DNA of 64,000 bases from Schmidtea polychroa (GCA_044892525.1 CM097886.1:130882001-130946000), one strand, 5' to 3'; shown: positions 25,571 to 51,164, numbered from the stretch's first letter. Numbers and translations are program-made. Notes: generated from the letters alone by a model not told the origin.

Positions 25571-26407
25571 AAATCACGGCTCAATTTTAAACGTGAAATA
25601 ATTTTTTGGATGGTCTTCAGAACAAGTTTGTTGGGTTTATTGGATCGGTGATGAGTTATAAATTCTTCAATTACAGCGTGTTTTATCACTTCACAAATTT
25701 ATAAATTCGAGTAAGATAACTTTTATTAATAATCACAATAAATTGTACATGTTGTAATTACAGCCAATCAATTTTAATATAGACAATTATCCAGAGCTTA
25801 TTACGTCACTACGTGAAGAATAGCTCTCCGTGTACAATTCGCCAATAACAATAGTAATCACTAATCGTTGATCGATTTAATCACAGAAATACATTACTCT
25901 ATTGCTTTGACCACAATTATTTACTCCTTTTCCGCCTTTATAATAGGTTTTCAAAGATTCTCGTTATCCTCTCAATCAATATATTTTCTTAATTCTGAAC
26001 TCTTTTTATTCAACCCTTTAACTCTCCTTTTAACTTTTAATTCTCCCTTTTTATTAACTCTTTTCTAACTAACTCTGAACTAACTCTTTTCTAATTCCTC
26101 TCTAACTTCGTCTGGTCTCGGCATCTTTCCCTTTTATAGTTTGTTACATTGATGTATTTCATATAATTTTGTTTTAACATTTTTTCCTTCCCGCATTTTA
26201 CACTGTCCCTACCTTATCTCTGACAGATGTCGAGATATGCCGGCTTTTTCCTTTTTCTGTTGGGCGATTTTTTTGAAATTTCGATATCTGTGACAAACTG
26301 TCAAGATATTAATTTTTCTCTGTTTTGTTTATGGAATTTGAAATTCTTTTTTCCCCATTTGTACTTGTTAATTAATAATGACCTTTGTTTTAATTTCTTG
26401 TTTGCTT

Positions 26408-27489
26408 TGTTGAGGTCTGTAAATTAAAATTAAAAATTTAAATAAAATTTAGGATAATAATTCAAATGGAAAGTAAGCGAGGAAAAAAGGCAAATAAAAG
26501 CGGGATCGTGCACAGAATCAATAGTAAAGGAAAGTGTGACGGAAACAGTAATAGAAAATGCAAAAAGCAATTACGAAAGGCGAGAATCTGGAAATCCGAG
26601 AAAAATCAATAAATGGAAAAATCATCGAAATCGAATGGGAAAAACGGGACAGGTATAGATTAGCTAATGGTCAACAAGATGATGGTTAGGGATTTATCAG
26701 AAAAGGGTTAGGAAGGGTCGAAAAACATTCAAACGTATGAAAACAGAAAACGTTAATTAATTAATTAATTGGCTAATGGAAAACCCGAGCTAATGGGAAA
26801 CCCGAGCCAATGGAGAACCCGAGAGACAAAGGAAACCCGAGCCAATGGAGAACCCGAGAGACAAAGGAAACCCGAGCTGGGTAAACAAGAAGAAAGGCAA
26901 ACAAAAGGAAGATTTGGGCCCATTAGCTTGACACAATGATTAATGGGAAAAGAGTAAGGAGAAGATAGCGCGCGTAGGAAGACCGGTAGGGCCATTAATT
27001 ATCTGGATTCGTTGGACCATTATGGATGACAGCCGAAGCAAACACGTAGGAGAAAATGTCAAACGAAAGATTGGTTCGGCAATAACCATTTGTCATCCTG
27101 ATTTTGAAGAGTATATAAGCAAAGGGAAAATCAGAGAAAATCGGCATTTTGCCTCAGGTAGGGTAAGAAGAATCGAGAATAGTCGAGAGGTAAAAACGAA
27201 TATAGAGAAGTAGGGAAAAGAAGAGATAGAATTAAGAATACTAAAAGGTAAAAAGGAATCAAACCAAACAGAAGCCGAGGAAAACGAGAGTCAAGAGAAT
27301 CGAAAGGATCGAAAGGTGAATATCATTTGTTTGCAAAGCATCAACGCCGAGCGGAGAATCGTATAAAACTTTGATTGGTAATTGTAGCGTGATAATAAAT
27401 TGTGAACCTGTTGTTTCAATATACGTTGGGTCGTTCATTGTTTTGATTTAAAGAACACAGGAGTCAGAGAGAACCGACTTGAAATAATC
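26408..27489 (+). repeat. 5' LTR (last 12 bp missing)
   Basis: Colinear with 39948-41029; lacks the terminal CAAAACCCAACA; six ACCCGAG motifs with CCAAT boxes, TATATAA at 27112, AATAAA at 27394. Confidence 0.95.
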
Positions 27490-27770
27490 GTGATTGCAAG
27501 TCGGTGGAAAATTATTGAAAGTTAGTGAAAAAATTAATTGTTGAAAAAAAATAGTACCGACGTGATAGAAAGTCGGAGGAAATTATTGAAAGCTACTGAA
27601 AAAGAAATTATTAAAAATTTAGTACCGACGTGATTGAAAGTCGGCGGAAAGTTACTAAAGTTAGTGAAAAAGTTAATTATTGGAAAAGTACTACAGAAGT
27701 GAGTGAAAGTCGGCTGAGAATCATTAAAAGTAGTGAAAATTTGTGAAAATAGTGCTAACGAGATTATTAA
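27490..27770 (+). repeat. Leader tandem repeat (about 68 bp x4) with CCGAC-N10-GTCGG stem-loops
   Basis: Units begin GTGA(T/G)..(C/A)AAGTCGG; perfect hairpins at 27557-27576 and 27625-27644. Confidence 0.75.
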
Positions 27771-27886
27771 AGAATATTATTGGGAGATTTAAAAGAAGTT
27801 GAAAAGTAATTTTAAATTATTGTTTAACGTTTGAAGTTTAGCTCAAAGTGAACCGATACAACCTCAGAAGTCAGAAACAAGTAGAA

Positions 27887-30157
27887 ATGGCAAATGATAA
27901 TGCTGTTATGCCTCTCAATAGAGAGATGATTGATTTTGCAAGTTGCCAGAAATTACCCGTCAATCAATATGGAGGAGACCCTGTTGAATTTGCAGATTTC
28001 ATGGGAGATTATTATATGTACGCCTCAGCATACGGATGGACACAAGCCATTATGGTTCAGAGATTCCCACTCTATCTGAAGGGTGTGGCAAGAGAAGCCT
28101 GGCAGCAAGTCGACAAACGAAATGTTGGCAATGATTGGACAAAATTGAAGGATGCAATGGCACTGAAACTGGTTGGTGGAGATATCAAAAGAATCATGCG
28201 ACAGAAATTTTATAATCGAGTTCAAGGTCCAGATGAATCGGTCAGTGAGTTTGCTTATCATCTGACCACTTTAGCAGATAAAGCCTTCGAAGTCAAACCA
28301 GATCAAGCGGATATGGCCAAGCAGGTTAAAGAGCTGTTAGAAGATCAGTTTATAACCGGAGTCCACTCCGAAATTAAAAAGGCCCTATGTTATGTGGATT
28401 TTTCCAATTTCGATGAGCTCGTGAAGAAAGCCATGAAGATAGAGCTGAATTTAAAAAGTGCAAAAAGATCAGATGCTTTTGGAGTTAATGTGGAGAGACG
28501 TGAGCGATCAATTACGCCTGTGAGAGCACCATGGGATGAAAAGAAAATAAATCAAATCAGTAGTCCAATTTTGAGACCAAATAATAGATTTCAAGCCAGT
28601 AGATCAGCCATGAACGTACAATCAAATGGACAGGTAAATAATCCTCAATGCGAACATTGCAAAAAGTCTGGACACTACTCAAATCAATGTTGGTTCAAAT
28701 ATGGGAAAAATCCCAGCCCTAACAAGAGATTCACAGAAAACAAAGGGATCAGCAGTGATGTCGAATGCTATCGATGCGGAAAGAAAGGGCATATTAGCAG
28801 AAACTGTTTCACCAGATCAAGATCATCGTCAACGTCACCTTCACCACAAAGGGACAAAGTGAATACAAATGGACAGATACAATGTCATTCGTGCAAGGGA
28901 TACGGCCACATGGCGCGATCATGCCCAAGGAACTCAGAAAGATTCAACAGACCTATTTTAAAGAAATCAATCAGATTCCAAGAAGATATGCCAAACATTA
29001 GTAACATGACATATGCTCAGAGAGAGGAATTTCAAGACAAAATGGAAAAGGAATTTCGAGAAATGCGACAGAAGCTGAACAAACTAGTGGCTAAATTTGA
29101 ATCAGATGAGGAAACTGAATCTCATATGATAATTGGAACCGTGTCAGAAGGTGAAGGAAAACCTGCCATGAAAGTGCGAAAGCTCGCATCAGATGAGAAT
29201 CCGACTGCACTGTTAGCCCGAGTCGAAAAATGGCTTGAGAAAATGGAAGCTGACAACTCCCAGTTGAAACGATGGATCGCAGAACTCAGTGTGATGTCAC
29301 TAACCCAAAGTGAACTAAAGAGAGCCATAAATTTATGTGCAAAGTTATTCAAAGGAAACAGAGACGATGAGATACTTAAACAAATGCAAAAGTTTGGCAA
29401 GGCTTTACGGTCAACAAGGGATTTAGCTGATATCATAGTGGAAACGACGGGACTTGATAATGTGAAGTGCCAATTCCGTGTAAATGCCTACGGACAAATC
29501 AAAGACCTAAAGGAGCGAATACTGCGTCAATACAGTGGATGGCAAGTGCAACTAAAATTTGAGAATCGATGTCTGGAAGACGAAGAGTACTTAGTAGATT
29601 GCGGTCTGATACCAGGCTGGAAAAATAAAGTAAATGTCGTTAATGCTGTTAATACTTTGAATTCAGACAGACAAAATTGGGAAAAGATTCTAGCAGATTT
29701 ACAAGATACCCTGTGTGCAGGGAATAGAGATAAAATTAATGCGAGTATCGACTTCATAAGGAGCATCGAAATGGATCGAGACATGAAAGAAGGGTTGTTT
29801 GAATGTATCGTACCGTATACGAATAAACCGACGAGTTATCAGGCAAAGCTAAAAGAGGTAATCCGAAAACTAGGACATGATTATGAGGCGGCAGACGATA
29901 GTGCGAAGTCTTTGATAATAGCGTTAAATATTGCGGATCAAAGGATTGAATATTATCAGGAACATTGGAGTGTAAAAGCAAAGAAAATACGACAAAAAGC
30001 AGCGGAGATATTAGGTAATGACGGAATTATCGTGTTGACGTTCAAAGGACGAGAATTGGATGATGACGAATATTTATTAAACTACGGATGTAACCAAATT
30101 GTATTAATAATGTGTACGCAACAAAACAAAGTGATGAAATGGAAAGAGATGCGGTAA
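27887..30157 (+). CDS. gag: Gag with three CX2CX4HX4C knuckles, followed by coiled-coil/helical segments and two ubiquitin-like domains
   Basis: YGGDPVEFADF...W..LKDAM capsid-like region; knuckles at 28649, 28766, 28883; Ubl1 about 29429-29641 and Ubl2 about 29909-30123. The frame opens at 27842; first ATG at 27887. Confidence 0.9.
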   Translation: MANDNAVMPLNREMIDFASCQKLPVNQYGGDPVEFADFMGDYYMYASAYGWTQAIMVQRFPLYLKGVAREAWQQVDKRNVGNDWTKLKDAMALKLVGGDIKRIMRQKFYNRVQGPDESVSEFAYHLTTLADKAFEVKPDQADMAKQVKELLEDQFITGVHSEIKKALCYVDFSNFDELVKKAMKIELNLKSAKRSDAFGVNVERRERSITPVRAPWDEKKINQISSPILRPNNRFQASRSAMNVQSNGQVNNPQCEHCKKSGHYSNQCWFKYGKNPSPNKRFTENKGISSDVECYRCGKKGHISRNCFTRSRSSSTSPSPQRDKVNTNGQIQCHSCKGYGHMARSCPRNSERFNRPILKKSIRFQEDMPNISNMTYAQREEFQDKMEKEFREMRQKLNKLVAKFESDEETESHMIIGTVSEGEGKPAMKVRKLASDENPTALLARVEKWLEKMEADNSQLKRWIAELSVMSLTQSELKRAINLCAKLFKGNRDDEILKQMQKFGKALRSTRDLADIIVETTGLDNVKCQFRVNAYGQIKDLKERILRQYSGWQVQLKFENRCLEDEEYLVDCGLIPGWKNKVNVVNAVNTLNSDRQNWEKILADLQDTLCAGNRDKINASIDFIRSIEMDRDMKEGLFECIVPYTNKPTSYQAKLKEVIRKLGHDYEAADDSAKSLIIALNIADQRIEYYQEHWSVKAKKIRQKAAEILGNDGIIVLTFKGRELDDDEYLLNYGCNQIVLIMCTQQNKVMKWKEMR

Positions 30158-33100
30158 TAGTACCGTTTTGGCCTCTATATGAGGAAATGGATAATAATAA
30201 TGTGGAGATTAAAACTGAAGTTGTAGATGACCCAGGAGAAATTGATCAAGAAATTAATGAATTGCAGAGATTAGAAACAATGGAAAATGAGGAAATGGGA
30301 TCGGAAAATGAAGTTGCAAGGGATATCGAGGAAATGAGCACCGATAATAAGGTACTACCGAGCATAGATGAGATGAAGAGCGAAGAGAACTTCGTTGAAA
30401 CGAAAAATGACATTGAGATATGTCGGAAAAAACAGAATGATGCGGAAATTGAATCTTTGAGTTTAGATGAATCAAGCGAAACTGAACGTTTAGATGAATC
30501 AAGCAGGACTGAGCGAATATTAAAAAGTTTAGTTACGGAATTGTACTTGTTAGATGAAACTGAAACAGAAGGAGATGACACTTCGGAGGGGGAGAAAAGA
30601 GTTGTAAAAAGATTGGCAACGGAATTAAAGAGGAGATTACCGTCGATAATTAAAAGAAATTATGAAGAAAAGGAATTTTGTGAGGAAGCAGTAATTGAGG
30701 ACCTAACACGAACTGAGTTAGATCGAGATGTAATATTGACAGTGTTAGCCTATATAATATTGGAGATTGGTATTTATGGTTGTCTGGAAAATGACAATTC
30801 AAAATCATTGATAAAGAAAGCTACTGAAATGGTGAATAAATATTTGACTAAGTGGATCACAAACAATGGCGGATGGGAAAAGTTGATACAAAAGGCTGAG
30901 AGCCCAAAAACAGAGACAGTGAGGAAAAAGGGAAAACTCGCATTTCCATGGTTGATGATTTCTATTATTATGTTATTGGGAATAATAAACACGACGAATT
31001 CATTAGTGGCATACGACTGCTCCCAAACCGAAATGGGAAGAGTATATTCGTTGGTAAACGTAGCAGAGTGTTCGGATGCATATCCAGTAAAATTTAAAGT
31101 GACAAATCCAGTAAAATATTATGTATATCAAGAATCGGAGTTTCGACGAGCAAAGGTGAGAGAGTGTACAGTGAAACGAACTACTTTTGTATTTTATTGT
31201 GGAAAATGGAGCCACTCATCGATGGTGAAAATGCAATCGATACCTAGACCGATAGAAATGATTCCAGAGAATTGTTTGGCAGCCTTTCAAACAGGACAGT
31301 TGAAAATCAATGCAGATATCAAACTACAAGCAAAGCTTAACCATAAAATCCGTGAGACTGTAACCGTGCGAGGGATAATAAAGTCGAATGGTGATTGCCA
31401 AGGCGAGCCATACAAAGTAGACGATGCTATAATTGACAAAGCCGTGGTTGTAGAAGAGTACATGTCAGAATTAAGAGAATTTGATGGATCATTTGATGAT
31501 GATACTGGTAAACTACAAACACATCCATTCTGCACCATGAAACAATCTAGCTGTCAGACAGGAGAATCAATATTGGTGTACGATGTCGATACCAAAAAGT
31601 GCAATTTAGTGCAATTGAAGTCAATGAGTTTTAAAGAAATAACGGGAGAACAGATCAGGGAAAAGCCTGAGAAAATAAGAATGGATCCAGCAACGAGTAC
31701 AACAACAAGAATCACACCTCTACGGATGAAAGATACTCCAACAGTGTTAATGTCAACCTCGGAGGAAGATGGGATGCGATTCCTGAGAAAAGAAACTAAA
31801 ACAAAGTGTGGACAAAATGTCTATGAGACAAATTATAAAGGTATATATGTATCTCAGAAGATGATTACAGAGGCCCAAACAAACATACATGCCGGAGATA
31901 TTAAGTTGACAAATTACTTTAATAACAAAATAGATTATTTATTTCACTTTGGTCAAAATACTGTTGAAAATGTGTACCGAGAAGTTATAATAAATGATTG
32001 CAATCTCAACAAAGAAATACTCCGAAATCGGATGGCAATGGCTATAACCAATCCTAATTTGATAGCACCAATGTTAATTACAGAAAATGGGGTGTTTGCC
32101 AGAATCTTCGGTGAAGCACTATATAGCTATAAATGTAAAGCGGTACCAGTTAAACTGACAAAGTATGACCAATGCACCAACGAGTTACCAGTGAATTTAA
32201 ATGGAAAGTTGCGATTTATGGAGCCTGTAACACGAATCTTACTGGAAGAGGACGTGAAACCGAAAGTGTTACAGTGCAATAGATTGTTGGCACCACTATA
32301 CAGACTAACACCAGAATCTTGGATTGCATTACCAGATCATCGAGAAGTAAAGACACCGGAAAACTTAGAATTGACAGAATTACAATATCTGGTAAATTTT
32401 ACGTCGTTAGAGAAATTATCGCAAAGTGGAATTTACTCGAACGAAGACATTGAGGAAGCTCGCAGAAACTTGTTATTTCCATCAAAGAAAGAAAGAGTAA
32501 TAATGGAAATGGTAGATACAATTCTCCCAAGCGGAAGTGGGAAGGTAAATTACGAGTATTTGTTAACTCCAGATCATTACAAGAAAGCGACGTATAATAC
32601 AATGAAAAAGATCTGGGGAAAGTTTATGTTTATTGGACAAGCGTGTGCCGGATTGATTGGAATTTATGTAATATGTGTTGTAATCAAAGTGATAATATCG
32701 CAGGTCCTGTCAACACACAGGTTATACGCGATCACAGGTTGGTCGTGGAAACTAGTAATTGGGTGCATACCATTATTGGCTAGATTCTTCATTACTCATC
32801 ATCAATATCAGGAGTTGGAGATACTCAAGGCGCGAATATTAAAGAAGAAAAAGGTGAGCTACGCTAGTACTACCCCTTCAAGGGACGAGAATAATGACAA
32901 TGACAACGAGGGTGATAGTGCACCGTTATATGTTGACAATCAAGAACTAAGTGGAATGAATAAAGAAGCGTTGAGAACTTATCAAATCTTAAAAGAGCCA
33001 CTGTTGAATGCGAGTAGCGTAGACACGTTTACAAAATTGTGTATACCAAAATCATTTATGCAACCAGCACCAGTGTATCCAGTTGATCGATTACGAGAGA

Positions 33101-34950
33101 TGAAACCAGTGGAAAATATCGCATTACAATGTGAAGGAATAGTAGGAGAGAGAATCGAGCCTTCTAGCGCAGAGATCGAGAGAAAGAATATGTTAGGCTT
33201 ACCATGCAACTACTCATTGATGACATTAACAAAAAGAGGAAAGCAACCCCGAATATTTATACAAATGAACAAACATAAAGTGGAAGCTTTGGTTGATTCG
33301 GGATCTAGTCACACAATAATATCGGAAAATGTATTAAACGCGAAGGAGAAAATGCGAATAAAGCCTACCGACGAAATAGTGAGGTCATTATCAAAAAATG
33401 AATTAAACATAATTGGACAACTTAACGTCATATTCCATATTGGAGATCGAATAATAGCGCACGATGCGCTCATAATGAAGGGAAGTCCAGTACGATGTCT
33501 GATCGGCATGGATATATTAGAGCAGCTGGATGGAGTCTCACTTGATTTAAAGACAGGTAATTTGATAGCAGGAGAAACAGGAGAAATAATTCACAGGGCA
33601 GGTGAGGTGTTTGGGAATCAGACATTGACAATACCAAAACAATCGGAAATGGTGTATTGTGCAAATACCATGAGTATGGATAGTGGCGATTTTTTAAATG
33701 AGCCAAACCAGGCACTAGTCGAAAAATATGAAATACCGAGATGCGACCAAATAGTCAAAGTGGAAAATCAGATAGAGTCTGTACATGCAATGAAAAGTAG
33801 TAATAAACCAGTCAGCTACATCAATAAGATATTATATGTAGCAATAATGCTGATGTTAGTAACAGTTGCGAGCGGCAAAAAGATCGACTTACCATATGCG
33901 GTAAACAAAATCCGAGGAATGGAGAAAATACATATATATTCCACTCTAAAAAATATAGTATGGAGCTGTAAATGCGAGATCGCAGACCAAATAGAAATTA
34001 TTGATTTACTAGACAATACGGTACCAGTGGTAGAACTAAATTATGATAAAGATATATTTGCGGTACGAAAGTTAAAGCCAAATTTCAAATACCAATGGCT
34101 GTTGAGACAGAACATGTCAAAGTGGTACACGCAAATTCCGATAGAAGTGCACACAAAAGAGATGCGAAACTTGATTGAAATAGAACCAGAGATAAATGGA
34201 ATCAATATATCTTGGAAGCCAGTGGACTTGGTGAAAGTGCGAATCACATTTCAAGGGTTAAATGTCGACACCCTTAACTCGCGAAAATCATTTATCCGCT
34301 ATGAGAAATTGAAAATGAATCAAAATTATTCAGTTAATGCAAACTACTACGAGAACATATGCCTCGAAAATGGAACGGTAGTGAGAAACCAATGGTCACG
34401 ATTTAAGAGCGAGACCCAGTCTATCTATCTCAGAGACGAGTCAAATCGTATAACCCTGAGTGTTGGAAATGGACCGGTAACGATATATAGAAAATCAGGA
34501 AATGATGAAAGAGTTGTTATTATCTACAAACAAAAAACCCTGACTATATTAGATGCCGGTAATCATTTTTTTACACTTTACACTTCTGATTTAGAGACGG
34601 CATGGGAATTAACAGTTAAATATCAGCGATGGATAACCGAACCAGGCAGATGGCAAACAGTTTTCGTGGAAGTCAAGACAATCAATGAAACGAAACGAAA
34701 ATCATATACAACCACATCACCTTTCCAATTACCGACCCAAGAGACGACAAAACCTAACTCAAACAAACTAATGATGATAAATTCGGATTTGACAGTCAAC
34801 TATTGTGAATATCTCATTTACATTCTAATAACAGGTTTTCTTATCTTATCAATAACATTCATAATCATCACCATCTTGATATGTGTAAAAGAGAGACAAC
34901 TAACTATCCTTCAACCACCATCATATTCATATTATGAGACAAGACTATAA
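30112..34950 (+). CDS. Polyprotein: acidic linker, Bcl-2-like domain, TM/signal, class III fusion glycoprotein, TM, retropepsin, FN3-like membrane protein
   Basis: 1612-aa uninterrupted ORF in the -1 frame relative to gag. WITNNGGWE (BH2-like), AYDC/FYCG..SH/NELPV env motifs, LVDSGSSHTII plus LIGMDIL protease, second signal-like segment and C-terminal TM. Confidence 0.9.
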   Translation: MYATKQSDEMERDAVIVPFWPLYEEMDNNNVEIKTEVVDDPGEIDQEINELQRLETMENEEMGSENEVARDIEEMSTDNKVLPSIDEMKSEENFVETKNDIEICRKKQNDAEIESLSLDESSETERLDESSRTERILKSLVTELYLLDETETEGDDTSEGEKRVVKRLATELKRRLPSIIKRNYEEKEFCEEAVIEDLTRTELDRDVILTVLAYIILEIGIYGCLENDNSKSLIKKATEMVNKYLTKWITNNGGWEKLIQKAESPKTETVRKKGKLAFPWLMISIIMLLGIINTTNSLVAYDCSQTEMGRVYSLVNVAECSDAYPVKFKVTNPVKYYVYQESEFRRAKVRECTVKRTTFVFYCGKWSHSSMVKMQSIPRPIEMIPENCLAAFQTGQLKINADIKLQAKLNHKIRETVTVRGIIKSNGDCQGEPYKVDDAIIDKAVVVEEYMSELREFDGSFDDDTGKLQTHPFCTMKQSSCQTGESILVYDVDTKKCNLVQLKSMSFKEITGEQIREKPEKIRMDPATSTTTRITPLRMKDTPTVLMSTSEEDGMRFLRKETKTKCGQNVYETNYKGIYVSQKMITEAQTNIHAGDIKLTNYFNNKIDYLFHFGQNTVENVYREVIINDCNLNKEILRNRMAMAITNPNLIAPMLITENGVFARIFGEALYSYKCKAVPVKLTKYDQCTNELPVNLNGKLRFMEPVTRILLEEDVKPKVLQCNRLLAPLYRLTPESWIALPDHREVKTPENLELTELQYLVNFTSLEKLSQSGIYSNEDIEEARRNLLFPSKKERVIMEMVDTILPSGSGKVNYEYLLTPDHYKKATYNTMKKIWGKFMFIGQACAGLIGIYVICVVIKVIISQVLSTHRLYAITGWSWKLVIGCIPLLARFFITHHQYQELEILKARILKKKKVSYASTTPSRDENNDNDNEGDSAPLYVDNQELSGMNKEALRTYQILKEPLLNASSVDTFTKLCIPKSFMQPAPVYPVDRLREMKPVENIALQCEGIVGERIEPSSAEIERKNMLGLPCNYSLMTLTKRGKQPRIFIQMNKHKVEALVDSGSSHTIISENVLNAKEKMRIKPTDEIVRSLSKNELNIIGQLNVIFHIGDRIIAHDALIMKGSPVRCLIGMDILEQLDGVSLDLKTGNLIAGETGEIIHRAGEVFGNQTLTIPKQSEMVYCANTMSMDSGDFLNEPNQALVEKYEIPRCDQIVKVENQIESVHAMKSSNKPVSYINKILYVAIMLMLVTVASGKKIDLPYAVNKIRGMEKIHIYSTLKNIVWSCKCEIADQIEIIDLLDNTVPVVELNYDKDIFAVRKLKPNFKYQWLLRQNMSKWYTQIPIEVHTKEMRNLIEIEPEINGINISWKPVDLVKVRITFQGLNVDTLNSRKSFIRYEKLKMNQNYSVNANYYENICLENGTVVRNQWSRFKSETQSIYLRDESNRITLSVGNGPVTIYRKSGNDERVVIIYKQKTLTILDAGNHFFTLYTSDLETAWELTVKYQRWITEPGRWQTVFVEVKTINETKRKSYTTTSPFQLPTQETTKPNSNKLMMINSDLTVNYCEYLIYILITGFLILSITFIIITILICVKERQLTILQPPSYSYYETRL
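30937..32800 (+). CDS. env: Env-like glycoprotein domain, chuvirus/Monjiviricetes-type class III fusogen
   Basis: Signal FPWLMISIIMLLGII, then LVAYDCS, C..K.TTFVFYCGKWSH, GDCQG, CGQNVYETNYKGIY, YFNNKIDYL, GEALYSYKC, CTNELPV, FMEPVTRIL, SGIYS, and TM FMFIGQACAGLIGIYVICVVI. Family assigned from recalled motif pattern. Confidence 0.75.
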
Positions 34951-35131
34951 ATTGTGATCTGCATGCTATAAATAGTGTATAAAAATATATTATATTTATA
35001 TCAACAATGTGCATGTTTTATAAGTACCATAGGATGAACTGTGTAATTTGTTTGAGATTCGAAGCGAGGTGTTGATGCTTTGCGAATAAAGAGTGATACA
35101 AAAAAAAATAACTATCATTTAATTTCAGAGA

Positions 35132-35377
35132 ATGCAAGAAACCTCGGAGATGACATGCAAAGAGTGTAAAACAAGTACGCAAGAACTAAAGCAAAGGTTT
35201 CGTAGCATGCAGGGCAGAATAACAGATTTGGAGGAAGAAAACTTCCGTCTAAAAAGGCGGTTGGACCGTTTGGAAATCTTATTGTTTCAACACGAAGCCG
35301 ATTTCGCGATGTTTCGAATGAGAGTAGAAGAAATAGAGGAATCGGAAGATGATGGTGAGATAAATCAATTAGACTAA
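35132..35377 (+). CDS. Small coiled-coil/acidic accessory ORF (81 aa)
   Basis: ATG ORF just after a TTTAATTTCAG acceptor-like site; heptad pattern LKQRFRSMQGRITDLEEENFRLKRRLDRLEILL; GC-richer than flanks. Confidence 0.55.
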   Translation: MQETSEMTCKECKTSTQELKQRFRSMQGRITDLEEENFRLKRRLDRLEILLFQHEADFAMFRMRVEEIEESEDDGEINQLD

Positions 35378-35926
35378 AAAAATAAATTATTTAAACGGAC
35401 CCTGTTGGTGTTTTTTCGTCCTCGAGAGAAAAAAATAATAGTAAATAAATATAAGTAAATTAACAATCAAAGGAATAAACAAATTGATATAAAGAAATAA
35501 TTGGCAGTGATAAATAATAGTTAAATAAAAATAAGTAGATTACCAAGTAAATAATCAAATGAATAAACAAATTGATATAAATAAATAATTAAAAAAGTGA
35601 TAAATTAAATAAATGAATAATAGATAAAAATGAACAAAGTTAAACGAGCAAATAGAATAACTCAAATAAATGTTGCAAATAATGAAATGACTACCTTAAA
35701 TGAGCATTAGAAATAAATAATATTAAATGACTGATTAGTAATTAATGAATTAGCATAACTATATAGCAATGGGTAACCCACTGGGGCGAGAGAACAAAAT
35801 TATAAATAAGTAAGGAATAATTTCACATTAGTAGTAACAAAGACTAATCACGAAGAGGGACACAATTACCCCACCCTTTCTAGCATAAATTGAAAACAAA
35901 GGTATGCGGAACATTTATTCAAAGTT

Positions 35927-36229
35927 TTATTCGTCATCAGAGTCCAACAGAACGGGACTTTGAATGCCACAGTCCCATTCCCTGCGTACATTGCAAGGCG
36001 GGCGTCGTTCAAACCTACTGCCTGTATCCACACAGGCAAAGGTACGTTTCAATCCCTTTCGACGCGGTAACAAAGGGACCCTGAAAAAGAAATTAAAAAA
36101 CCTGTTAGTATAGCAGTCAAATAACCATTGCATAACATCGAGATGCTCAAACTTAGGTTCTGGGACAGCCTAAAATAGTAAGGGTTGAAAAGAAAAATGA
36201 AATAAATACTATGTAAAACTCCGTACCAT
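35927..36229 (-). CDS. Antisense spliced ORF inside the LTR element (about 66 aa if the ATG at 36229 is the start)
   Basis: Exons 36229-36227 (ATG), 36169-36126, 36080-35927; GT-AG introns of 57 and 45 nt; reads MAVPEPKFEHLDVMQWVPLLPRRKGLKRTFACVDTGSRFERRPPCNVRREWDCGIQSPVLLDSDDE*; AATAAA at 35919-35914. Confidence 0.55.
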
Positions 36230-36760
36230 GGCGCCCTCGACAAATAATTAGTGCAGGGAAGTAATTGATTTTAAGAATTACGTAATAAATTAATAAGTAT
36301 AAATACGGCTAAAATTGTCAGAAAAATACGAGTAGCTGTAATTAGAGGTTTGCTTTTAGTATAAATACAAAATCAAAAATCAAAAATATATGACCCAAAA
36401 CATGAGTGTGGTATAGGTAGTTGCATAAACAAATTAAAGTTAAAAAGTAAATAAGTTAATTTAATAAGCATCAATAAGTTAATTTAATAAGCAACACGAG
36501 CACTTGCAATCACCGGGGTTTGGCTACCCTGGACAGCGATTGCAAATGTTCGGTTACTATGAGGGTAGTTGAGGACAGCATGGTAAAAAGAATCACAAAT
36601 ACAAAAAATAACAAAAGATAAGTAATCACTTACGTCCATAGTAATTGAGGGATGGCGTTACTAAAATTCAAAAAAAAATATGAAAAAGAAAATATAAAAT
36701 GCTTACTTCAAGATGGGCAAGACAAAACTAACGAAAAGTGGTAAAGCAGAAACTTATATA

Positions 36761-36900
36761 GAACGCTTATCAGTACAGACTACGTTGACAAACTACAGGG
36801 TAATTAATTAGAAAGCTTATCAGCACGGCTACGTAAGAAACCACAGGGTAATTAATTATAGAGCCTATCGGTATCGGCTACGTCAAAAACCGCAGGATAA
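36761..36900. repeat. Degenerate tandem repeat, about 49 bp x3
   Basis: GCTTATCAG.AC.GCTACGT...AAAC.ACAGGGTAATTAATTA units. Confidence 0.7.
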
Positions 36901-37734
36901 GTAAAAATTCATTCGGAATATTAATGTTCATCGCAGATACCTTATCAGGCTGAGTAAACAAGTGATATCATGAGTCGGTCGGTGCGGGGGAGATTAACTT
37001 TTTACCATGCTGCGAGCGAAATAAACCAACAAGTTATTAATAACAAAAAATTATTTTTAAATCATATTATTAATAATAATGGTAATAATGATGAAAGAAA
37101 AAATATAAATAAAAAAATAAATAAATTACCTTGCGACTGGGAATAAATTAGACAAATATTTTGCACATAAAAATCGATCAAACCGTAAAGACACACACAC
37201 AGACAGACACACAAGCATATCCCATCAACTGCTCAACTCTGTTATTAACCACAATTTTATCCATATTCTTGGTAAACCGTATTCATCTTGAACAATAACA
37301 ACAACCACAGCTAATATCATCGCGCTACTAACAATATAGTATAAGAAATTTTCAATAAATTTTACTGTTGATTTCCACCAAAGTCACCAGTCTAATCAAT
37401 TAATGAATTCATAAACTCTCACACAAAAATTGTAAAAATGCAAATTGTAACAAAATATAATTTAATCAGATACTATTAAAAAATTTCTTTTTATTCTCAC
37501 CACATAACCAAAATAGGAGCAATATACACTTTCAAAATGCAGGAATATCTTTTTAATATCCTGAAATAATAAACTAAATGTACTCTGTAATATCCTAAAA
37601 TAATTAATTTCAATACTCTGAAACTACAATAACCTTAACAGACTGTCGTTAGTCTACTCAATTTATTAATTTTTAATAGACGTCAGATAAAAATTATTTC
37701 CCTCAATTAATAGACGCCCCGATAATCGGATAAA

Positions 37735-37821
37735 TAATAATAATAATAATAATATTGATAAAATAATAATATTGATAATAATAATGGTAATGATAGTGGT
37801 AATAACAGTAATAATTATAAC

Positions 37822-37867
<46 letters not shown>

Positions 37868-37895
37868 TTGATAGTAGTAATAATAATAGTAGTAG
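37735..37895. repeat. (AAT)n/(AGT)n compound microsatellite
   Basis: Direct reading. Confidence 0.9.
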
Positions 37896-39935
37896 TAGTA
37901 ATTTTTCAAGTTTATTTCTCATTTAAATTGATATCTCTAACATTTCAGGGAACTGCAAATATTATTACTCTTTCGTAATTTTCAAATAATTTCCAACTAT
38001 AATTTGCAAGCATTACACAAATGCCTAAATATTATTTTAAATGCTCAATTATATCCACTCAAATCCTCATGCTAATAAATAACAAGATTAATAACAATTT
38101 TATACAAATCATTGAATTGCTTTATAATTGCCGATATTTCATAACATCACATATAATTGTTACATAAAATGAATAAATAATAAACCTACTTCAATCTTAA
38201 AAAATATAAATTAATAAACCAAAAAAAAATCATTTGCTAAAAATATTTCAGAATATAAAAAGATTTTCATTATTTTATTGAACCTTCGATTTGAGCTGGA
38301 ATTCTGAGATTTGATCGACAGATTATAAATATATATCTCAAACCTGTGCTATAATTTTCATAATTCAATGTTGTCAGTGCATATCGATTTTTCCCCAACT
38401 TATCAATCATCGGTTTTAAGAATCAATGACTAAGAATAATTCGAATCTTTATACAATTAATACAAAAAAAAATAAAAATTAATCTAACCATTTTGTGTTT
38501 CTTCTTCAACGTTTTGTAGCATGCATGGTTTTTATAACCCAATCGTCAACCATAAATAAGTGTGAATGAAATTTAAGCCAAACTCTAATATAAAAAATAA
38601 ATATATTGTTGTTAAATTCGTTTAAATCAAGTGATTGAATTTTCATTTCCTGCTTTTAAAAAGCTATATTTTCTCTCTTTCAGCCGTTGACAAATGGCCA
38701 ATCAAATTGAAGAGAGTGTGTGTCATCAAAATTATTAGAGACACGACAATAATGATTTTATAAGCATCTCTTGTACATGTACACATGGAGAGAAATAATT
38801 TCATTACCATTACATACATACAACTGCAAACTGATTGGGTGTTGTATATTTTATTTACTTTCTGACAAAAATTAATCAGCAAATCCCATTAATCACCTCT
38901 ATTTTGTTTACATTGGCCAATCTCGGTTTACACGAGCAATTACGAAAAAGATTTATCTTATCTCTTTTTCAAGGCGTTTTGAGTCCATGATCGGCAATTG
39001 CCCGAAGCCGAATATATCGAAGAGAAAAAAAAATCCCCATTGATTAGAAATGTCTGATAACGACAGAACTAATACAATTAGAATATATTTAAAATCAAGA
39101 CCATTTTTTCAATTCAAACAGAAAATGTTTTTGGGTTTATAACAAAGGTATCGAAATGTTATATTTCTCTACAAAAAAATATATATATATATAATTACAC
39201 AATGTGAAATTTATCCTGAAGCTTATAGGATTGAAATTTTTAATTTATAAATTTTAAATCAAACTTATAATTTTAAAATGTATTATAAAATAAGGGGCAA
39301 ATTATAGTCGACACCATAAATAAGTCTTTTGAAAACTGTATTACTAAAAATGAAATGAAACTGTGATAGTACATTTTTATTTCAGTGAAACAAAAATAAA
39401 ATAAAAACAATTGCGCAAATAAGATTTGGACCGTGGATCCATTTCAGAGTGACGTTTTGGCTACGGGAATATCAACAAATGCAAATGGGAAATTAATAGG
39501 TCTTTTGGAAAATGAATTTTGAAAGTCGATTATTGCAATTTATTTGATTTACTATAAATTACCTGAAGTTATTGGGCAAATATTTGTTTGGGAAATATTT
39601 AAATAATTAATAATTTAGCCTTATTTTATTTAATGTATAATATATAATAAGTTAAACTAAAATCTTTAAATATAATTTAAAATAATTAAAACCAATAAAA
39701 TCAATAATTAATTAATTCATAGAGCAATTAAAATATAAAATTAATCTGAAAAATTAAAATGTCACGGTTGAATAAAAAAAAATATATCTTGAAGTAATAA
39801 TTCGGATAAATAGTAATAATAATAATAAGGGTAATATTAATAATAATAATAATAGTGATAATAATGACAACAATAATAATAATAATAATACATAATCACA
39901 GCAAAACATAGATTTCGAGAACGAAAAAATTTTTT

Positions 39936-39945
39936 AAGGGGGAGA
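39936..39945 (+). other. Polypurine tract
   Basis: AAGGGGGAGA, 2 nt upstream of the 3' LTR TGT. Confidence 0.85.
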
Positions 39946-39947
39946 TA

Positions 39948-41041
39948 TGTTGAGGTCTGTAAATTAAAATTAAAAATTTAAATAAAATTTAGGATAATAA
40001 TTCAAATGGAAAGTAAGCGAGGAAAAAAGGCAAATAAAAGCGGGATCGTGCACAGAATCAATAGTAAAGGAAAGTGTGACGGAAACAGTAATAGAAAATG
40101 CAAAAAGCAATTACGAAAGGCGAGAATCTGGAAATCCGAGAAAAATCAATAAATGGAAAAATCATCGAAATCGAATGGGAAAAACGGGACAGGTATAGAT
40201 TAGCTAATGGTCAACAAGATGATGGTTAGGGATTTATCAGAAAAGGGTTAGGAAGGGTCGAAAAACATTCAAACGTATGAAAACAGAAAACGTTAATTAA
40301 TTAATTAATTGGCTAATGGAAAACCCGAGCTAATGGGAAACCCGAGCCAATGGAGAACCCGAGAGACAAAGGAAACCCGAGCCAATGGAGAACCCGAGAG
40401 ACAAAGGAAACCCGAGCTGGGTAAACAAGAAGAAAGGCAAACAAAAGGAAGATTTGGGCCCATTAGCTTGACACAATGATTAATGGGAAAAGAGTAAGGA
40501 GAAGATAGCGCGCGTAGGAAGACCGGTAGGGCCATTAATTATCTGGATTCGTTGGACCATTATGGATGACAGCCGAAGCAAACACGTAGGAGAAAATGTC
40601 AAACGAAAGATTGGCTCGGCAATAACCATTTGTCATCCTGATTTCGAGGAGTATATAAGCAAAGGGAAAATCAGAGAAAATCGGCATTTTGCCTCAGGTA
40701 GGGTAAGAAGAATCGAGAATAGTCGAGAGGTAAAAACGAATATAGAGAAGTAGGGAAAAGAAGAGATAGAATTAAGAATACTAAAAGGTAAAAAGGAATC
40801 AAACCAAACAGAAGCCGAGGAAAACGAGAGTCAAGAGAATCGAAAGGATCGAAAGGTGAATATCATTTGTTTGCAAAGCATCAACGCCGAGCGGAGAATC
40901 GTATAAAACTTTGATTGGTAATTGTAGCGTGATAATAAATTGTGAACCTGTTGTTTCAATATACGTTGGGTCGTTCATTGTTTTGATTTAAAGAACACAG
41001 GAGTCAGAGAGAACCGACTTGAAATAATCCAAAACCCAACA
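39948..41041 (+). repeat. 3' LTR (complete, 1094 bp)
   Basis: TGTTGAGG...CCCAACA followed by TSD GCTT; AATAAA at 40934. Confidence 0.97.
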
Positions 41042-41850
41042 GCTTTATTTTGTTTGATTTCTCATTTCATGCTTCTTTTTACTTCCGTTTTCTTTTCTGA
41101 ATTCCCATAGATCGTCCCGTTTGCCAGGTAATTTTATTTATTTTTCATATTATTTATTATTCAGGTATCCTCAACAAGTTCAACAATAATTGAACCCATG
41201 CGGAAAATCATTACCATATAAGTAAGAATTAAAATATTCACATAGAGACATTAATTGCGATTTTCCATAAAAATGCATAAGTAAAATAGTAGATTCTATA
41301 CTGCAGATAAACTAATATTTCTAGAAATCATTTAATTCAACTAAAAGTATTCAGACATTCAAACGGTTAGTAGATTTAAAAACTGATACTTATCTTCCAA
41401 AATCACCAGCTTCGAAATTATGTTGAGCATTCGTCATCTTGAGATTTATTTGATTCAAAAACTTTGAGCATAAAGTGTGAACATCTCGATATTGGAGAAT
41501 CCGTTTAGTGTAACACTCGAGCATATACGGTTTGATTGAAAAAAAACCTTGAGCAATTGTTAATTAACTTCATCTGATTCAAAAGTTGGGGGGGCATATA
41601 ACATTTGAGTTTAAAAACTTCGAACATATAAATATTTAGCTTCATTCGATTCAAAAGCTTGCATATGGAATTTAATTTAAAATACGTGACCATATTGATA
41701 TCTAAAACATCTTTTGTTTTTCAAACTTCCAATCACTTGAAATTATAAATTAGAGCCTGCCTATAATTATCAGACTTGGAGCTAAATAAAAAATCATTAA
41801 AATTTTCTAAAATTATTAGATAAGAAATTGAATATATAATTTATAAAATA

Positions 41851-43893: not shown

Positions 43894-46800
43894 AATTCCT
43901 CAATTTACGCTGTAGATACGTTCCAAGAAACTAATGGGCAAATCGAAACCGCGTAAATCGAGGCTTCAAATTCATACAAAAATAATAGATGGGTTCCAGA
44001 AAATCGCGTAAAACGAGGCATAAAAATACAATTTTATTTAGAAATAGATTTAAAAAATCGACATTTAAATTTTAAAATCGCTACTATCTTCGGATTCAAA
44101 CCCAGCAGCGTGCTCTTCTTCTCGTTTTATTAAATAGTCTGTAAACAATTTTTGTGTTTTGTTTTTTTAAAAATCTTTGTAAATTTCACTGTATTGCACG
44201 CAAAGGCTTTTAATGTCTAGCTGAAATTTAACAGCACGGTCAATATCAGGATCAGTGGCCAAAACCTTATTTTCTAAGTTACTGGCCAATTGTAAATTAT
44301 AAACAAGCAAATCTTGGGCGAAACACGTGCACTCCACAACATAATATTTGACGTACTGCAGGCGTAATGGAGTGGGTTACAGACGTCTAGTCGTTGTCAT
44401 GCATTTGAGAGACACTTGCCACTAAATATGTTTGATTTAATTAAAAAAATATTATTTTGTATGACCGTGTAAAATGGGTAATATTATACTGTAATATTAT
44501 ACTGTATGTGATATTCTTATTTTTGTTATTTGGTGATGCAATTATCACTGTCACTTACACATGATCTAGGTCATCACTACACACAAAATATGCACATAGC
44601 GCCGATGAGCCCTATTCCGGATTTACCTATAGGCAGACTAGGCACTGCCTAGGGGCCCGCAGTTTTGGGGGCCCCAAAATCGAAATCATCTAAGGGGCCA
44701 CAAAAAAAATATTTTTTTTAATGTATTTTTTATATACTAAAATATAAAAAAATTAAAATACAGTATAAAATACATGTATTATATAAAGAATTAAAAAAAC
44801 ATTGTACGTATTTTTTTATTTAAGGAAATTTTCTAAAATATCAACAATTTGGGGCCCCAATAATTTTAAAAGTTATTATAGTTGAAAAAATATTTTTTCT
44901 TTATTTCCGCAACCTCCAAGGGGGTTATAATTAGTGGAGTTTGTCGGTTGAAATTTGCGAAGGCGGGAATCGAATTGTTATTTTGTAGAAACATATTTTT
45001 TTGGAGTGTTGGTAAAAATTTTATACACAAAAGAAAAAAATTATTTCAAAGGAAATCGGCTTAAAAATAAAAAATTTAAAATAAAGCAATTTTAGGACGA
45101 AGTGAGGCTTTTTTTTAATTGATTAATTGTTAAGATCTAGGTATAGTATAAAAATATTAAAATTATTTAATCAATTTAATTAAAAAATACTTTAATTAAA
45201 TTTAAGATAGAATGAAACGAAACTACGCAAGCGGAGCGTTTAAAAGGAAGAAAAAAGCAGAGAGAGAAGAAGAAATTAAGAAAATTCCTAAGCTAGATTG
45301 TTTTTTCACTAAAGATTCTGCAACTGAAAGTGAATTTGTAGCACAAGAAGATCGGCACCAAAGCGACCAAATAGAGGTCTCTTCCAGTACTTCAAATCAA
45401 CCTATTTTCACTGGAAGTTCAAATCAAGTTTTTAATTATTTCGAAAATAATTTGGAGCTGGTAGATAACATTAATAATGAAAATTTAGTGGAATCCCTGA
45501 TTGAATCATCTCCAAATGCAAATCGTGAGAATGACGTAGGATTATGGAGAGAATTGTCTTCTGAAGACACTTTGTACTGGATTGAGAAGGGCCCTGAAAG
45601 TTGCCAACATTCAACAGAAAACTTTCATTCTTCCAAACAGCTCTATAATGACAATACTGTTCGATATTGCTCTAAGACTTTATTCTTTGATGAAAAAACA
45701 AATGGAGAAAAGTACACTCGCGAATGGCTTGTATATTCGCCTAAAATTGGAAATGTTTTTTGTTTTGTTTGCAAATTACTCACTGCTTCAAATTTCAATT
45801 TAGCAACCAATGGCCTGCGAGATTGGAAAAATGCTGGTTCCTCAATCAAAAGCCATCAAAACTCTTCTGAACATCGTAATGCTTTAGTTACATAGTTAAC
45901 TAGAAAAAGTAACTATTCTGTGTCGGATCAATTGCAAAAAGAAATACAACAAGAAAGGATTTACTGGAGAAAAGTCTTAGAACGAGTTGTAGCTGTTATT
46001 TGCACCATTGTTGAACGAAATTTACCATTTCGAGGATCAAATGAAATTTTTGGAATGGAAGGAAGTGGCAATTTCATTGGACTCTTGGAACTTATTGCAA
46101 AATTTGATCCATTTTTAGCAGAGCACATTAGAAAGTTTGGTAATCCAGGATCTGGAAAAACTTCTTATCTCTCTAAAACAATTTTTGAGGAATTGCTCGA
46201 TCTGATGGCAAAAACAGTATTGAAGTCGATTTCTGATGACATCAAACAATCAAAATATTTTGGAATGTCTGTGGATTCCACCCCTGATATATCACACAAA
46301 GATCAATTGTGCATGATTATCAGATACGTTGATCAAATCAATTTTAAACCAATCGAGCGATTCTTAAACTTTATTGAGATAGAGAATCACACTGGAGAAT
46401 ATTTAGCTGACATTTCATTGGAATTTTTTGAAAAGGATATTGGGTTAAATTTTCAAGATTGCCGATCACAATCGTATGACAACGCTATGAATATGGCCGG
46501 AAAATACAAAGGAATGAGGGCAAAAGTTCTTGAAAAAAATGATAAAGCAATTTTTTTACCGTGCAGTGCTCATTCTTTGAATTTGGTTGGAAATTCAGGT
46601 GCGGACTGTTGCATAGAATCAATCAATTTTTTCGGATTAATTCAGGAAATTTACAATTTTTTTTCATCGTCTACTAAGAGATGGAACAAGTTAGTTGAAT
46701 TTTCAAATAGAACGGTAAAATCGTTATCAAAGACTAGATGGAGTGCTCGTTCTGAGTCAGTTAAGGTCATTCACAAAAACTATGAAAATGTAATGGAAGC

Positions 46801-49270
46801 ACTAAATGCCATCATTGAAGATGCAAATTTTGATGGAAACACTAGAAATGAAGCAAATAATTTATTGAATAAAATGGAGGAGTTTGAATTCGCACTTCTC
46901 GTTATATTTTGAGATCAGGTTCTAGAGAGAATGAATGCAGTTTCAAAAAATTTGCAAAGTCCTAAAGTCACATTAGACGTTTGTTCTTCGTTATATGCAT
47001 CTCTAGCTTCATATATTACAAATTTGAAAAATAGCTTTGATGAAATTAAAATTGAAGCTAAAAAATTGTTACCAAACACTGACTACACTGTCAAGAGAAA
47101 GGGATTTAAAAAGAAATTTCCAGATGAAGATCAAACTACCACAGAACCAGAAATTAGTGCTAAAGAGAACTTTCTAAACAACGTCTTCATGAAAATTTTA
47201 GAAAACATCGAAAATAATTTGATTCAGCGCTCTGATTGTTACTTGGAAATTTCTAAAGTGTTTGGTTTTTTGACAAATATTGAATTGTCGCAAGAAGATT
47301 TGAAACAACATGTGAATAACGTTGTTGAAAAATATCCAGATGATATAGACGATTCACTTTTTTTCGAGTTACTACAATTTCACGAATATATCAGGAACGA
47401 TTGGCCAAATGATCATCCAAATCATTTGAGTTTCTACGAGATAATTAAGGAAAAAAATTTGGAAATTGCTTTTCCAAATTTGGAAACAATTTTAAGAATT
47501 TTTTTGTGTCTAATGATTGCTAATTGCACTGGCGAAAGAAGTTTCTCAAAATTGAAGCTGATTAAAAATTTTTTGAGGTCAACGATGAGTCAAAAAATTT
47601 TGAATAATTTGGCCTTATTATCTTGTAACATTGATAAATTGAAAGCTATTGATTTTGATTCATTGATTGATCAATATGCTCTAGAAAAATTTAGAAAGAA
47701 AGTTTTGTAAAATTATATTTTTGACATGACATATGTATCTTATTTTTTAACGGAATTATTTAATAAATATATTTCAAAATATAAATAGGTAGTAAATAAT
47801 TATTTCTTAAATACTTTTAGCAAATAAAATAACCTACATAATTTCCTTGAAATATACTAATTAATTTTGAGGGCCCCAAAAAGCTCCTTTGCCTAGGGCC
47901 AACAAATGCTTAAATCCGGCCCTGGATGAGCCACACACTCACAAATATATCATACCAGCCTTACTGTGGAAAGTATATCCAATCTAATGACAATAAATTT
48001 ATTGGGGAAACTAATAGAAAATTTTGATGCCATTCCCTTTGTTACATCTTGGATGAACCAGAATATGCATATACAAAGCATGGTGTGTTAAATTTGAACT
48101 TATCAGCTTTTGTGCAATAAATGTTTGACTTTGTTATATATATAAAATAAAAGATTTAATTTATCTTGCAGTGGGGTCGTGAGCCAATTCATTTCGCATG
48201 CAGTGCAGAGCATATAGAAATTATGAAGTTATTGATTGATCACAATTGTGATATTGAGTCACGTGATAAGGTTATGTTTTAGTTAATATTAATTGATTTT
48301 TAATTATTTACTCTACAGTGGAATCAGCGGCCAATTCACTATGCAAGTGAGCGTGGACGTACAGAAACAGTCAAACTGCTGATTGATCATCATTGTGATA
48401 TTGAGGCACGAGATGGGGTGAATTTTGTTGATTATTTAATATTTTTTATTTACTTACATTCCAGTGGGATCGGGCACCAGTTCATCGCGCATGTGAGCGT
48501 GGACACACAGAAATTGTAAAATTACTAATTGATCAACATTGTGATATAGAGATAAGTGATAAAGTATATTTTGCCAATTATTTAATAATTTGTATTTATT
48601 TACTTTTCAGTTGGGTTATCGATCCTTTCATTACGCATGCAAATCAGGGTGCATAGAAACAGTAAAACTGTTGATTGATCACCATTGTGATATTGAAGCA
48701 TGTGATATGGTGAATTTTGCTGATACTTTACTAATTTTTAATTATATACCTTTCAGTGGGATCAGCGGCCAATTCATTGCGCATGTGAGCATGGGAGGAC
48801 AGAAATTGTAAAATCACTTATTGATCACCACTGTGATATTGAGGCACGTGATAAGGTGCATATTGTTAATTAATTAATAATTTTTATTTATCTACCTTTC
48901 AGTGGAATCGACGGCCAATTCATCTTTCATGTAGTGCATGTCGCACAGAAACAGTCAAACTTCTCCTTTCTTGCAATTGTGATATTGAAGCTCGTGATGA
49001 GGTACATTTTCACATTATTTAGTGATTTATATTTATTTACATTTTAGTGGGATCAGCAACCAATTCATCTCGCCTGCCACGCGGAGCGCACTGAAACAGT
49101 CAAAATACTAGTTGAACACCATTGTGATCTTGAGACGCGCGATCGAGTAAATTTTGCTTTCAATCCAGCTGATAACTAATCTCTTTCGTTCATTTCTTTA
49201 GTTTGGTAATACCCCTTTGGAAATCGCTATGAAAACAGGCAATGAAGGAATTATTCATATTCTGAATGGG
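43097..49270 (+). CDS. Ankyrin-repeat protein with one repeat per exon
   Basis: Phase-0 exons 43097-43198, 43598-43702, then 99-nt exons 48172-48270, 48319-48417, 48465-48563, 48611-48709, 48757-48855, 48903-49001, 49048-49146, and 49202-49270; consensus [25 protein letters not shown]. Confidence 0.88.
43816..43891. repeat. (TA)n microsatellite
   Basis: Direct reading. Confidence 0.98.
44612..47924 (+). mobile_element. hAT DNA transposon inserted in an ankyrin-gene intron
   Basis: Perfect 8-bp TSD GATGAGCC (44604-44611, 47925-47932); right TIR TAAATCCGGCCCTG; left TIR CTATTCCGGATTTA with damaged outer bases. Confidence 0.92.
45212..47710 (+). pseudogene. hAT transposase (ZMYM1-like), one frame with two nonsense codons (TAG 45893, TGA 46910)
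   Basis: WLVYS...[37 protein letters not shown], and [19 protein letters not shown]. Confidence 0.93.
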
Positions 49271-50960: not shown

Positions 50961-51089
50961 TGTTTTAATTATCGATGATTATATAATTTTGTTTAAATCA
51001 TTGATTATATAATTCTTTTGTTTTAATTATAGAATACGTAATAATATAATTTTGTTTAAATCGTTGATTACATATTATTATTTTCTAAG

Positions 51090-51164
<75 letters not shown>

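Follow-up and report, generated by a model that had tools for sequence, protein, structure and literature searches.

Element structure and damage private to the window copy

The 64,000-nt stretch of Schmidtea polychroa DNA analysed here (GCA_044892525.1 CM097886.1:130882001-130946000), referred to as the window, contains at positions 26408-41041 a long terminal repeat (LTR) retroelement encoding a Gag, two ubiquitin-like (Ubl) domains, a Bcl-2-like domain, an envelope fusion glycoprotein (Env), a protease (PR) and a second membrane protein. No Pfam match to reverse transcriptase (RT) or integrase (IN) was detected in this copy, in agreement with a preliminary description of the locus. Sequence comparisons indicate that the element is a defective member of the Gag-Env-Pol errantivirus family Smed_errantivirus_2, a compact Burro-like family, and that the loss of RT and IN marks a multi-copy subfamily, which the preliminary description did not see.

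The element is flanked by a 4-bp target-site duplication (TSD), GCTT, at 26404-26407 and 41042-41045, and its LTRs, already described as near-identical, show 3 mismatches in 1,082 bases. The 3' LTR (39948-41041) is complete, with 1,094 bp and TG...CA ends, while the 5' LTR (26408-27489) lacks its final 12 bases. A polypurine tract (PPT, 39936-39945) and a leader with 3.6 copies of a 69-bp tandem repeat (27489-27739) were also identified, both of them, like the LTRs, on the plus strand. An Rfam search of the window gave no match.

Two open reading frames (ORFs) of 771 and 1,618 codons are present in the window copy, where siblings carry a single one. Pfam assigned Gag and zinc knuckles to the first ORF, and a Monjiviricetes-type fusion glycoprotein and an aspartyl protease to the second. 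The ORFs had been described as pristine, but the frame is broken near 30,094, within the second Ubl domain. This break was absent in 9/9 informative copies sharing the RT/IN loss (deletion copies, see below) and in the one full-length tile tested (1/1). The window copy also lacks 32 bases that comprise the 5' LTR end and most of the primer-binding site (PBS); these bases, and with them the PBS, are kept in all 10 deletion copies that were fetched. These comparisons identify the two-ORF split as damage private to this copy. With most of its PBS lost and its frame privately broken, both probably after insertion, the window copy is a likely dead end.

In siblings the PBS begins 7 bases past the 5' LTR and is complementary to tRNA-Trp genes of the same genome. 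Self-priming in place of a PBS was ruled out, as siblings possess this tRNA-Trp PBS, and a programmed frameshift between the two ORFs was likewise rejected, as siblings carry one ORF. The tRNA-Trp(CCA) genes form a tandem array with a 284-bp period (L064, G000:C4:55.02 Mb onward); the tRNA-Trp pattern gave 821 matches genome-wide, and nearly all of the first 100 listed lie in this array.

Complete siblings of the element

Full-length siblings, whose retrieval had been proposed in the preliminary description, were found. A genome search with the LTR gave 3,097 candidate matches, of which 40 were scored, and one with Env gave 2,475, of which 131 were scored. All 131 scored Env matches were 97-100% identical, and 10 of the 131 lie in unbroken frames of 3,334-3,361 codons. 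Complete siblings measured 17.4-17.8 kb in four of five cases and 15.1 kb in the other, and four of the five contained a single ORF. The 3,334-codon ORF of a full sibling includes RT, RNase H (RH), H2C2 and IN domains, all above Pfam cut-offs. The family places env between gag and pol, and PR, RT, RH and IN follow in the Ty3/gypsy order, of which only PR is retained in the window copy. Comparison by eye with the published Smed_errantivirus_2 Env showed 246 of 251 identical residues.

A deletion subfamily with a diverged junction tract

The junction of an in-frame deletion of ~2.9 kb, which removes RT, RH and IN, lies at 33807-33820 (plus strand). A 120-base query spanning it aligned over its full length at 28 of the 40 places scored, spread over four chromosomes, and whole-genome pattern counts gave 28 deletion junctions vs 229 integrase-tail junctions. 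One further diverged deletion copy brings the subfamily to about 29 copies, ~11% of the family. Deletion copies retain LTRs, PBS, PPT, Gag, protease, Env and the tail protein (the second membrane protein, encoded past the protease). Of the 10 fetched, five showed matching TSDs that differ from copy to copy, in three an end was truncated or lay beyond the tile, and two had complex ends; the frame was unbroken in one of the 10. Splicing was considered as the origin of the deletion and rejected, as no convincing donor or acceptor was seen by eye at the breakpoints.

A diverged tract adjoins the junction on its left (33601-33806, plus strand) and marks the subfamily. Of the 40 bases left of the junction, 10-11 depart from the full-length reference tile in 10/10 deletion rows, against 0-1 in each of the other seven full-length rows. 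The tract extends for 40-200 bases, depending on the copy. The proportion of synonymous differences (pS) between the window copy and five full copies is 0.35-0.38 in the tract and 0.04-0.08 elsewhere; the ratio of nonsynonymous to synonymous proportions (pN/pS) in the tract is 0.34, with 15 synonymous changes among 36 differences (binomial p 0.002). The best 28 genome matches to the tract are all deletion copies, and beyond them were found one more deletion copy and two older RT-bearing copies, the latter slightly closer to the tract (84% vs 81-82%). No full-length donor with the whole tract was found among the 40 best matches.

Outside the tract the two forms are intermixed. No fixed difference in gag, env or tail separates 11 deletion copies from 5-7 full copies, and their sequences are interspersed in the corresponding trees. 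LTR pairs of deletion copies, the window copy included, differ at 1, 1, 3, 4, 9 and 19 of ~1,060 sites, and those of full copies at 0, 1, 3, 3 and 3. Since the deletion rows share a diverged tract that no full-length row carries, the RT/RH/IN deletion arose once, long ago, and is present in many independent young insertions.

A literature search, judged from titles and the beginnings of abstracts, found no paper on an RT/IN-less planarian subfamily. Contigs from sequencing runs guessed to be RNA cover the element region and give no evidence for or against expression; two of them, from two studies, pass from the deletion-specific tract across the junction and stop at 33,836, which falls below the 31 bases required to count as bridging it, and two of the four runs used yielded nothing.

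Domains of the polyprotein

The order given in the preliminary description, Gag-Ubl-Ubl-acidic-Bcl2-transmembrane (TM)-Env-TM-protease-signal-fibronectin type III (FN3)-like-TM, was supported by profile or fold searches. The same description was right in tracing the copy to a retrovirus-like Gypsy lineage, one that carries Ubl and Bcl-2-like modules, a class III-type Env and a second membrane protein. The assignments of the two Ubl domains, the Bcl-2-like domain and the FN3-like protein each fall under the Pfam curated cut-off or come from a low-confidence model. Every domain gave pN/pS values between 0.09 and 0.41, calculated from pooled, non-independent pairs of 13-17 ungapped rows, with gapped or tile-edge rows left out. 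All the domains that follow lie on the plus strand.

Gag, at 27887-28950, comprises a capsid domain (PF03732, E 5.6e-9) and three CCHC knuckles, at 28649, 28766 and 28883 (PF00098, E 2.4e-10), with pN/pS values of 0.16 and 0.12. Ubl domain 1 (29414-29656; pN/pS 0.17) matched PF00240 below cut-off in the window copy (E 2e-4) and at E 1e-4 in a sibling. Ubl domain 2 (29930-30150), which contains the private frame break, was tested on a sibling's unbroken domain. A single-sequence search of the Ubl region against PDB was unsuccessful. A Ubl profile built from element copies only matched polyubiquitin and ISG15, with 52 sequences at E<=0.1 and single-domain ISG15 at 7.5e-5. The model of the Ubl-Bcl2 region, with a predicted local distance difference test score (pLDDT) of 43.5, contains two beta-grasp units, and its Foldseek matches were ISG15 and di-ubiquitins. 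An acidic linker (30160-30480), predicted from its sequence and a pLDDT under 35 to be disordered, follows.

A divergent Bcl-2-like domain was located at 30574-30915 (phmmer E 0.027), with pN/pS 0.41. Pfam placed it below cut-off in the window copy (E 0.13), and in sister families the domain reached PF00452 E values of 2.6e-5 and 4.7e-5, also under the curated cut-off. A profile of nine element rows matched 142 PDB sequences at E<=0.01 (best 6.6e-5), and the 60 shown all belong to the Bcl-2 family. Helices are predicted here with pLDDT under 50, and no Bcl-2 was seen among the Foldseek rows shown for this low-confidence model. The domain retains the BH2-like W..GGW motif, and the BH1 NWGR is substituted in 9/9 aligned rows. 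The profile matches point to a homologue of the Bcl-2 family over the BH1-BH2 helices, without the BH1 NWGR of BH3-binding members. As has been proposed for Burro, the Ubl and Bcl-2-like modules would probably modulate ubiquitin and cell-death pathways of the host. Host-type Bcl-2 genes (L031-L042) were also found, several of them in a duplicated cluster at G000:C4:89.9-90.8 Mb, with weak similarity to the element domain.

A hydrophobic segment at 30931-30993, predicted from hydropathy to be the Env signal or a Bcl-2 tail anchor, precedes the Env ectodomain, which together with its TM anchor (32623-32715) occupies 31003-32715 and is of the glycoprotein B (gB)/chuvirus type, class III (PF24664, E 1.2e-94; pN/pS 0.13). 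A phmmer search of Env against PDB sequences found no viral glycoprotein. The Pfam match argues for homology of Env with the chuvirus-type, class III-type fusion glycoprotein. A retroviral-type aspartyl protease (33241-33534), with its DSGS motif at 33295, was recognised by Pfam and motif.

Downstream of the deletion junction, the tail protein (33829-34950) consists of a signal-like segment, predicted tandem FN3-like beta-sandwiches, a Thr/Ser/Pro stalk, a TM segment (34804-34896) and a short tail. Its pN/pS is 0.28. The model is all-beta, with pLDDT 51 overall and 70-84 in the middle domain, and the top Foldseek matches of this low-confidence model were FN3 tandems (E 7.5e-5, TM-scores about 0.2). 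Pfam gave no match to the tail protein, and a viral fold search returned only generic beta-sandwich matches. A clear homologue is present in a sister family (E 4e-54), and one of two database matches is a stand-alone homologue (E 1.5e-9). A PPxY sequence, which resembles the viral late-budding motif, is located at 34920-34935, at the cytosolic end of the protein.

With four membrane segments, the polyprotein would thread the endoplasmic reticulum membrane four times, as suggested by hydropathy and by general knowledge of polytopic viral polyproteins. Gag-Ubl-Ubl-Bcl2 and PR-RT-IN would be cytosolic, and Env and the FN3-like protein would be lumenal; signal peptidase, together with the viral protease, would release the latter two. 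The RT/RH/IN deletion would leave this topology intact.

Two small candidate genes were found beyond the tail protein, and the accessory sense and antisense genes proposed earlier gained modest support. The sense candidate is a coiled-coil ORF of 81 codons (35132-35377, plus strand), open in 12 of 14 matched copies, with an in-frame pN/pS of 0.35 against off-frame values of 0.49 and 4.1, and no Pfam match above cut-off. The antisense candidate is an ORF or exon of 80 codons without a start codon (35927-36169, minus strand), ungapped and open in 9/14 matched copies, with pN/pS 0.27 vs 0.50 and 0.92; no intron-like joint was found in sequencing runs guessed to be RNA. The frame comparisons suggest, to a modest degree, that both are coding, and only weakly so for the antisense ORF.

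Origin and maintenance of the deletion copies

It is highly probable that the ~29 Smed_errantivirus_2 copies share one in-frame RT/RH/IN deletion, and these copies were likely mobilised by the enzymes of complete copies. Deletion RNA would be co-packaged with full-length RNA, and would be reverse-transcribed and integrated by enzymes supplied in trans. Template switching would swap current family sequence into the deletion copies, except for the 40-200 bases adjoining the junction, and a single old deletion could in this way be carried along by young backbones, forming a defective subfamily that is probably parasitic. From the TSDs and recombination tracts, we infer mobilisation in trans, and the simplest reading, by analogy, would be a defective subfamily like the mouse intracisternal A-particle (IAP) form 1-delta-1.

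Several points weigh against this interpretation. Mobilisation in trans is read from genomic traces alone, and DNA-level gene conversion between copies could likewise homogenise their sequences. Just 10 of the 29 deletion copies were fetched, picked among the best matches to the window, and the identity with Smed_errantivirus_2 is based on a single Env stretch of 251 residues, for which the comparison was made by eye. Recurrence is conceivable, since both breakpoints fall in a short imperfect repeat, although the shared tract argues otherwise. The membrane topology is based on hydropathy, and the signal segment of the tail protein is below the 19-residue threshold used.

The deletion subfamily could instead be a helper, supplying extra capsid and surface proteins and being copied in exchange. 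Excess structural protein would be needed because a complete element would yield Gag, Env and Pol one-to-one from its single ORF. The in-frame deletion spares every structural module and the protease, the old junction (tract pS about 0.37) lies within young insertions, and the tract is under constraint (pN/pS 0.34); a Gag-supplying precedent is given by RLG_Quinta, as described in PMC11302176. However, unbroken frames (1/10) are no better kept in deletion copies than among all copies (10/131), deletion copies make up ~11% of the family, and the older RT-bearing copies are a little nearer to the tract. The pN/pS of the tract also equals that of the adjoining protease (0.32), and its constraint may therefore date from before the deletion. 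Because intact frames are no commoner in deletion copies and the constraint may be older than the deletion, the helper role is not favoured and we regard it as unlikely. Its fullest form, in which an old, enzyme-less subfamily maintained by recombination balances Gag:Pol by supplying capsid, a gB-type fusogen and an FN3-like attachment protein, is slightly less likely again; if true, a stem-cell-rich animal would host an endogenous virus made up of two parts and bearing two glycoproteins.

Independent recurrence, in which template switching at the shared short repeat produces unrelated accidents and no subfamily, is very improbable. The imperfect repeat at both breakpoints and the scattering of deletion copies among full copies in the gag, env and tail trees would fit such an origin, but it is largely refuted by the block of differences beside the junction, present in 10/10 deletion rows and 0/8 full-length rows, and by the restriction of the best 28 tract matches to deletion copies.

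Finally, the absence of RT and IN from the window had left room for two other readings, an enveloped element of a categorically new kind that lacks RT/IN, and a mis-assembly. Both are refuted, with hardly any probability remaining: 229 integrase-tail junction loci, complete siblings and a published family and layout were found, and mis-assembly is excluded as the cause of the missing RT/IN because this junction recurs at 28 loci spread over four chromosomes.

Comparison with known elements

The preliminary description knew of no report of this combination of domains. It is not new, because both the Burro layout (PMC6431247) and the family itself, as Smed_errantivirus_2 in the supplement of PMC13524379, are already published. 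Chary & Hayashi (eLife 2026, PMC13524379) describe gB-type errantiviruses with GAG-ENV-POL order in flatworms, and among them Smed_errantivirus_2 is listed as HSV/gB-type with 215 intact copies, Smed_1 standing at 64% from Smed_2 in their table. The present family resembles Smed_errantivirus_2 in the position of env between gag and pol and in Env domains I-II, where 5/251 residues differ, and the copy numbers are comparable (~215 intact copies there, 229 integrase-tail junctions here). Unlike Smed_errantivirus_2, the window copy is without RT/RH/IN. The tRNA type is given as 'none' in PMC13524379, whereas siblings here have a tRNA-Trp PBS. The words 'Bcl', 'ubiquitin', 'fibronectin', 'Burro' and 'non-autonomous' are absent from the main text of that paper.

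Planarian Burro elements were described by Arkhipova & Yushenova 2019 (PMC6431247) as encoding one polyprotein, Gag-CCHC-Ubi/SUMO-BCL2-Env-PR-RT-RH-IN, with a mononegavirus-like Env in frame, and were called possible proviruses. As in Burro and GYPSM1, Ubl and BCL2-like domains precede an in-frame Env in the present family. Because of its shorter length and ORF (17.7 kb and 3,334 codons, vs >30 kb and 4,873 for Burro1) and of the lack of MATH, BIR or ankyrin Pfam matches, the family is considered Burro-like and is not filed as Burro1, a comparison made with the published description of Burro. Two Ubl domains are present here, and an FN3-like membrane protein follows the integrase, of which the Burro account in PMC6431247 makes no mention. 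The dUTPase-like region noted for Burro has no Pfam support in this family. BURRO1 and BURRO4 are reported in PMC8532177 to be under PIWI control.

Mouse IAP 1-delta-1 carries an in-frame internal deletion, is non-autonomous and was amplified via proteins supplied in trans (PMC6466679). The planarian form is similar in that the same deletion stands at many independent sites and the cis signals (LTR, PBS and PPT) are retained. Unlike IAP 1-delta-1, which as described there has no env and has gag fused to a pol remnant, the planarian form keeps Env, the protease and a second surface protein, is without all of RT/RH/IN and represents a minority of copies. In wheat, the non-autonomous partner in the RLG_Quinta / RLG_Cereba pair retains Gag and is proposed in PMC11302176 to contribute it; RLG_Quinta is described as a separate, env-less family 28-35 million years old, in contrast to the planarian form, for which recombination with the parent is still free.

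Related elements and other features of the window

A sister family (L075-L077; G000:C2:120.41 Mb, C52) has the Ubl-Ubl-Bcl-2-Env order and a homologous tail, with 32-38% protein identity. A second family (L067, L069; G000:C1:210.86-210.87 Mb) contains frames of ~3,050 codons with Gag, CCHC, one Ubl, a Bcl-2-like domain and Env; its signal-to-TM tail is shorter, and a separate ORF of 722 codons gave no Pfam match. In metagenome proteins P0001-P0007, Env lies before the protease or Pol in one ORF; P0001 shows a weak Bcl-2-like segment ahead of Env (E 0.2), and P0005 a hydrophobic segment and an extension past the integrase.

Two copies of the family (L003-L005, G000:C3:40.97-41.00 Mb, and L006-L008, G000:C1:130.82-130.85 Mb) contain a Polinton-like insert of ~16 kb with a type B polymerase (E 9e-15) and an A32 ATPase (E 1e-8). 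Retrotransposition of the Polinton as cargo was ruled out, as the flanks on either side, 6 kb each, are common to both copies (99.9% and 98.9%), and the pair is therefore a segmental or assembly duplication.

Within the window, a solo LTR of the same family (12457-13516, minus strand; 1,060 bp) has its own 4-bp TSD and is 84.6% identical to the element LTR. An EGF-repeat exon is located at 7760-8335 (plus strand), and broken ORFs resembling hAT-type transposases by eye lie at 17846-20582 (minus strand) and 45206-47707 (plus strand). A 146-bp tandem repeat in six diverged copies occupies 48233-49134, with a related unit at 43613, and a gene-less inverted repeat of ~5.7 kb at 49900-55650 has near-perfect arms made of 21-, 64-, 69- and 214-bp tandem units.

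Significance

The combination of domains that headed the preliminary description is already in print and carries little weight as a discovery. Two modest additions were not found in print: the subfamily that lacks RT/IN and keeps Env, and the FN3-like membrane protein located past the integrase. The figures and supplements of Grohme 2018, beyond the search, may already name both this family and its tail.

In the deletion subfamily, nature would have kept a record of how an enveloped retroelement of an invertebrate undergoes co-packaging and template switching. At silent sites its junction marker is ~7x more diverged than the remainder of the family, and it is found in insertions with LTRs 98-99.9% identical. 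It also makes testable the question of whether an Env-keeping, Pol-less form is a defective parasite or a structural helper of a single-ORF element. The post-integrase FN3-like membrane protein, which is under purifying selection and also occurs in sister families, is a candidate partner of the gB-type Env.

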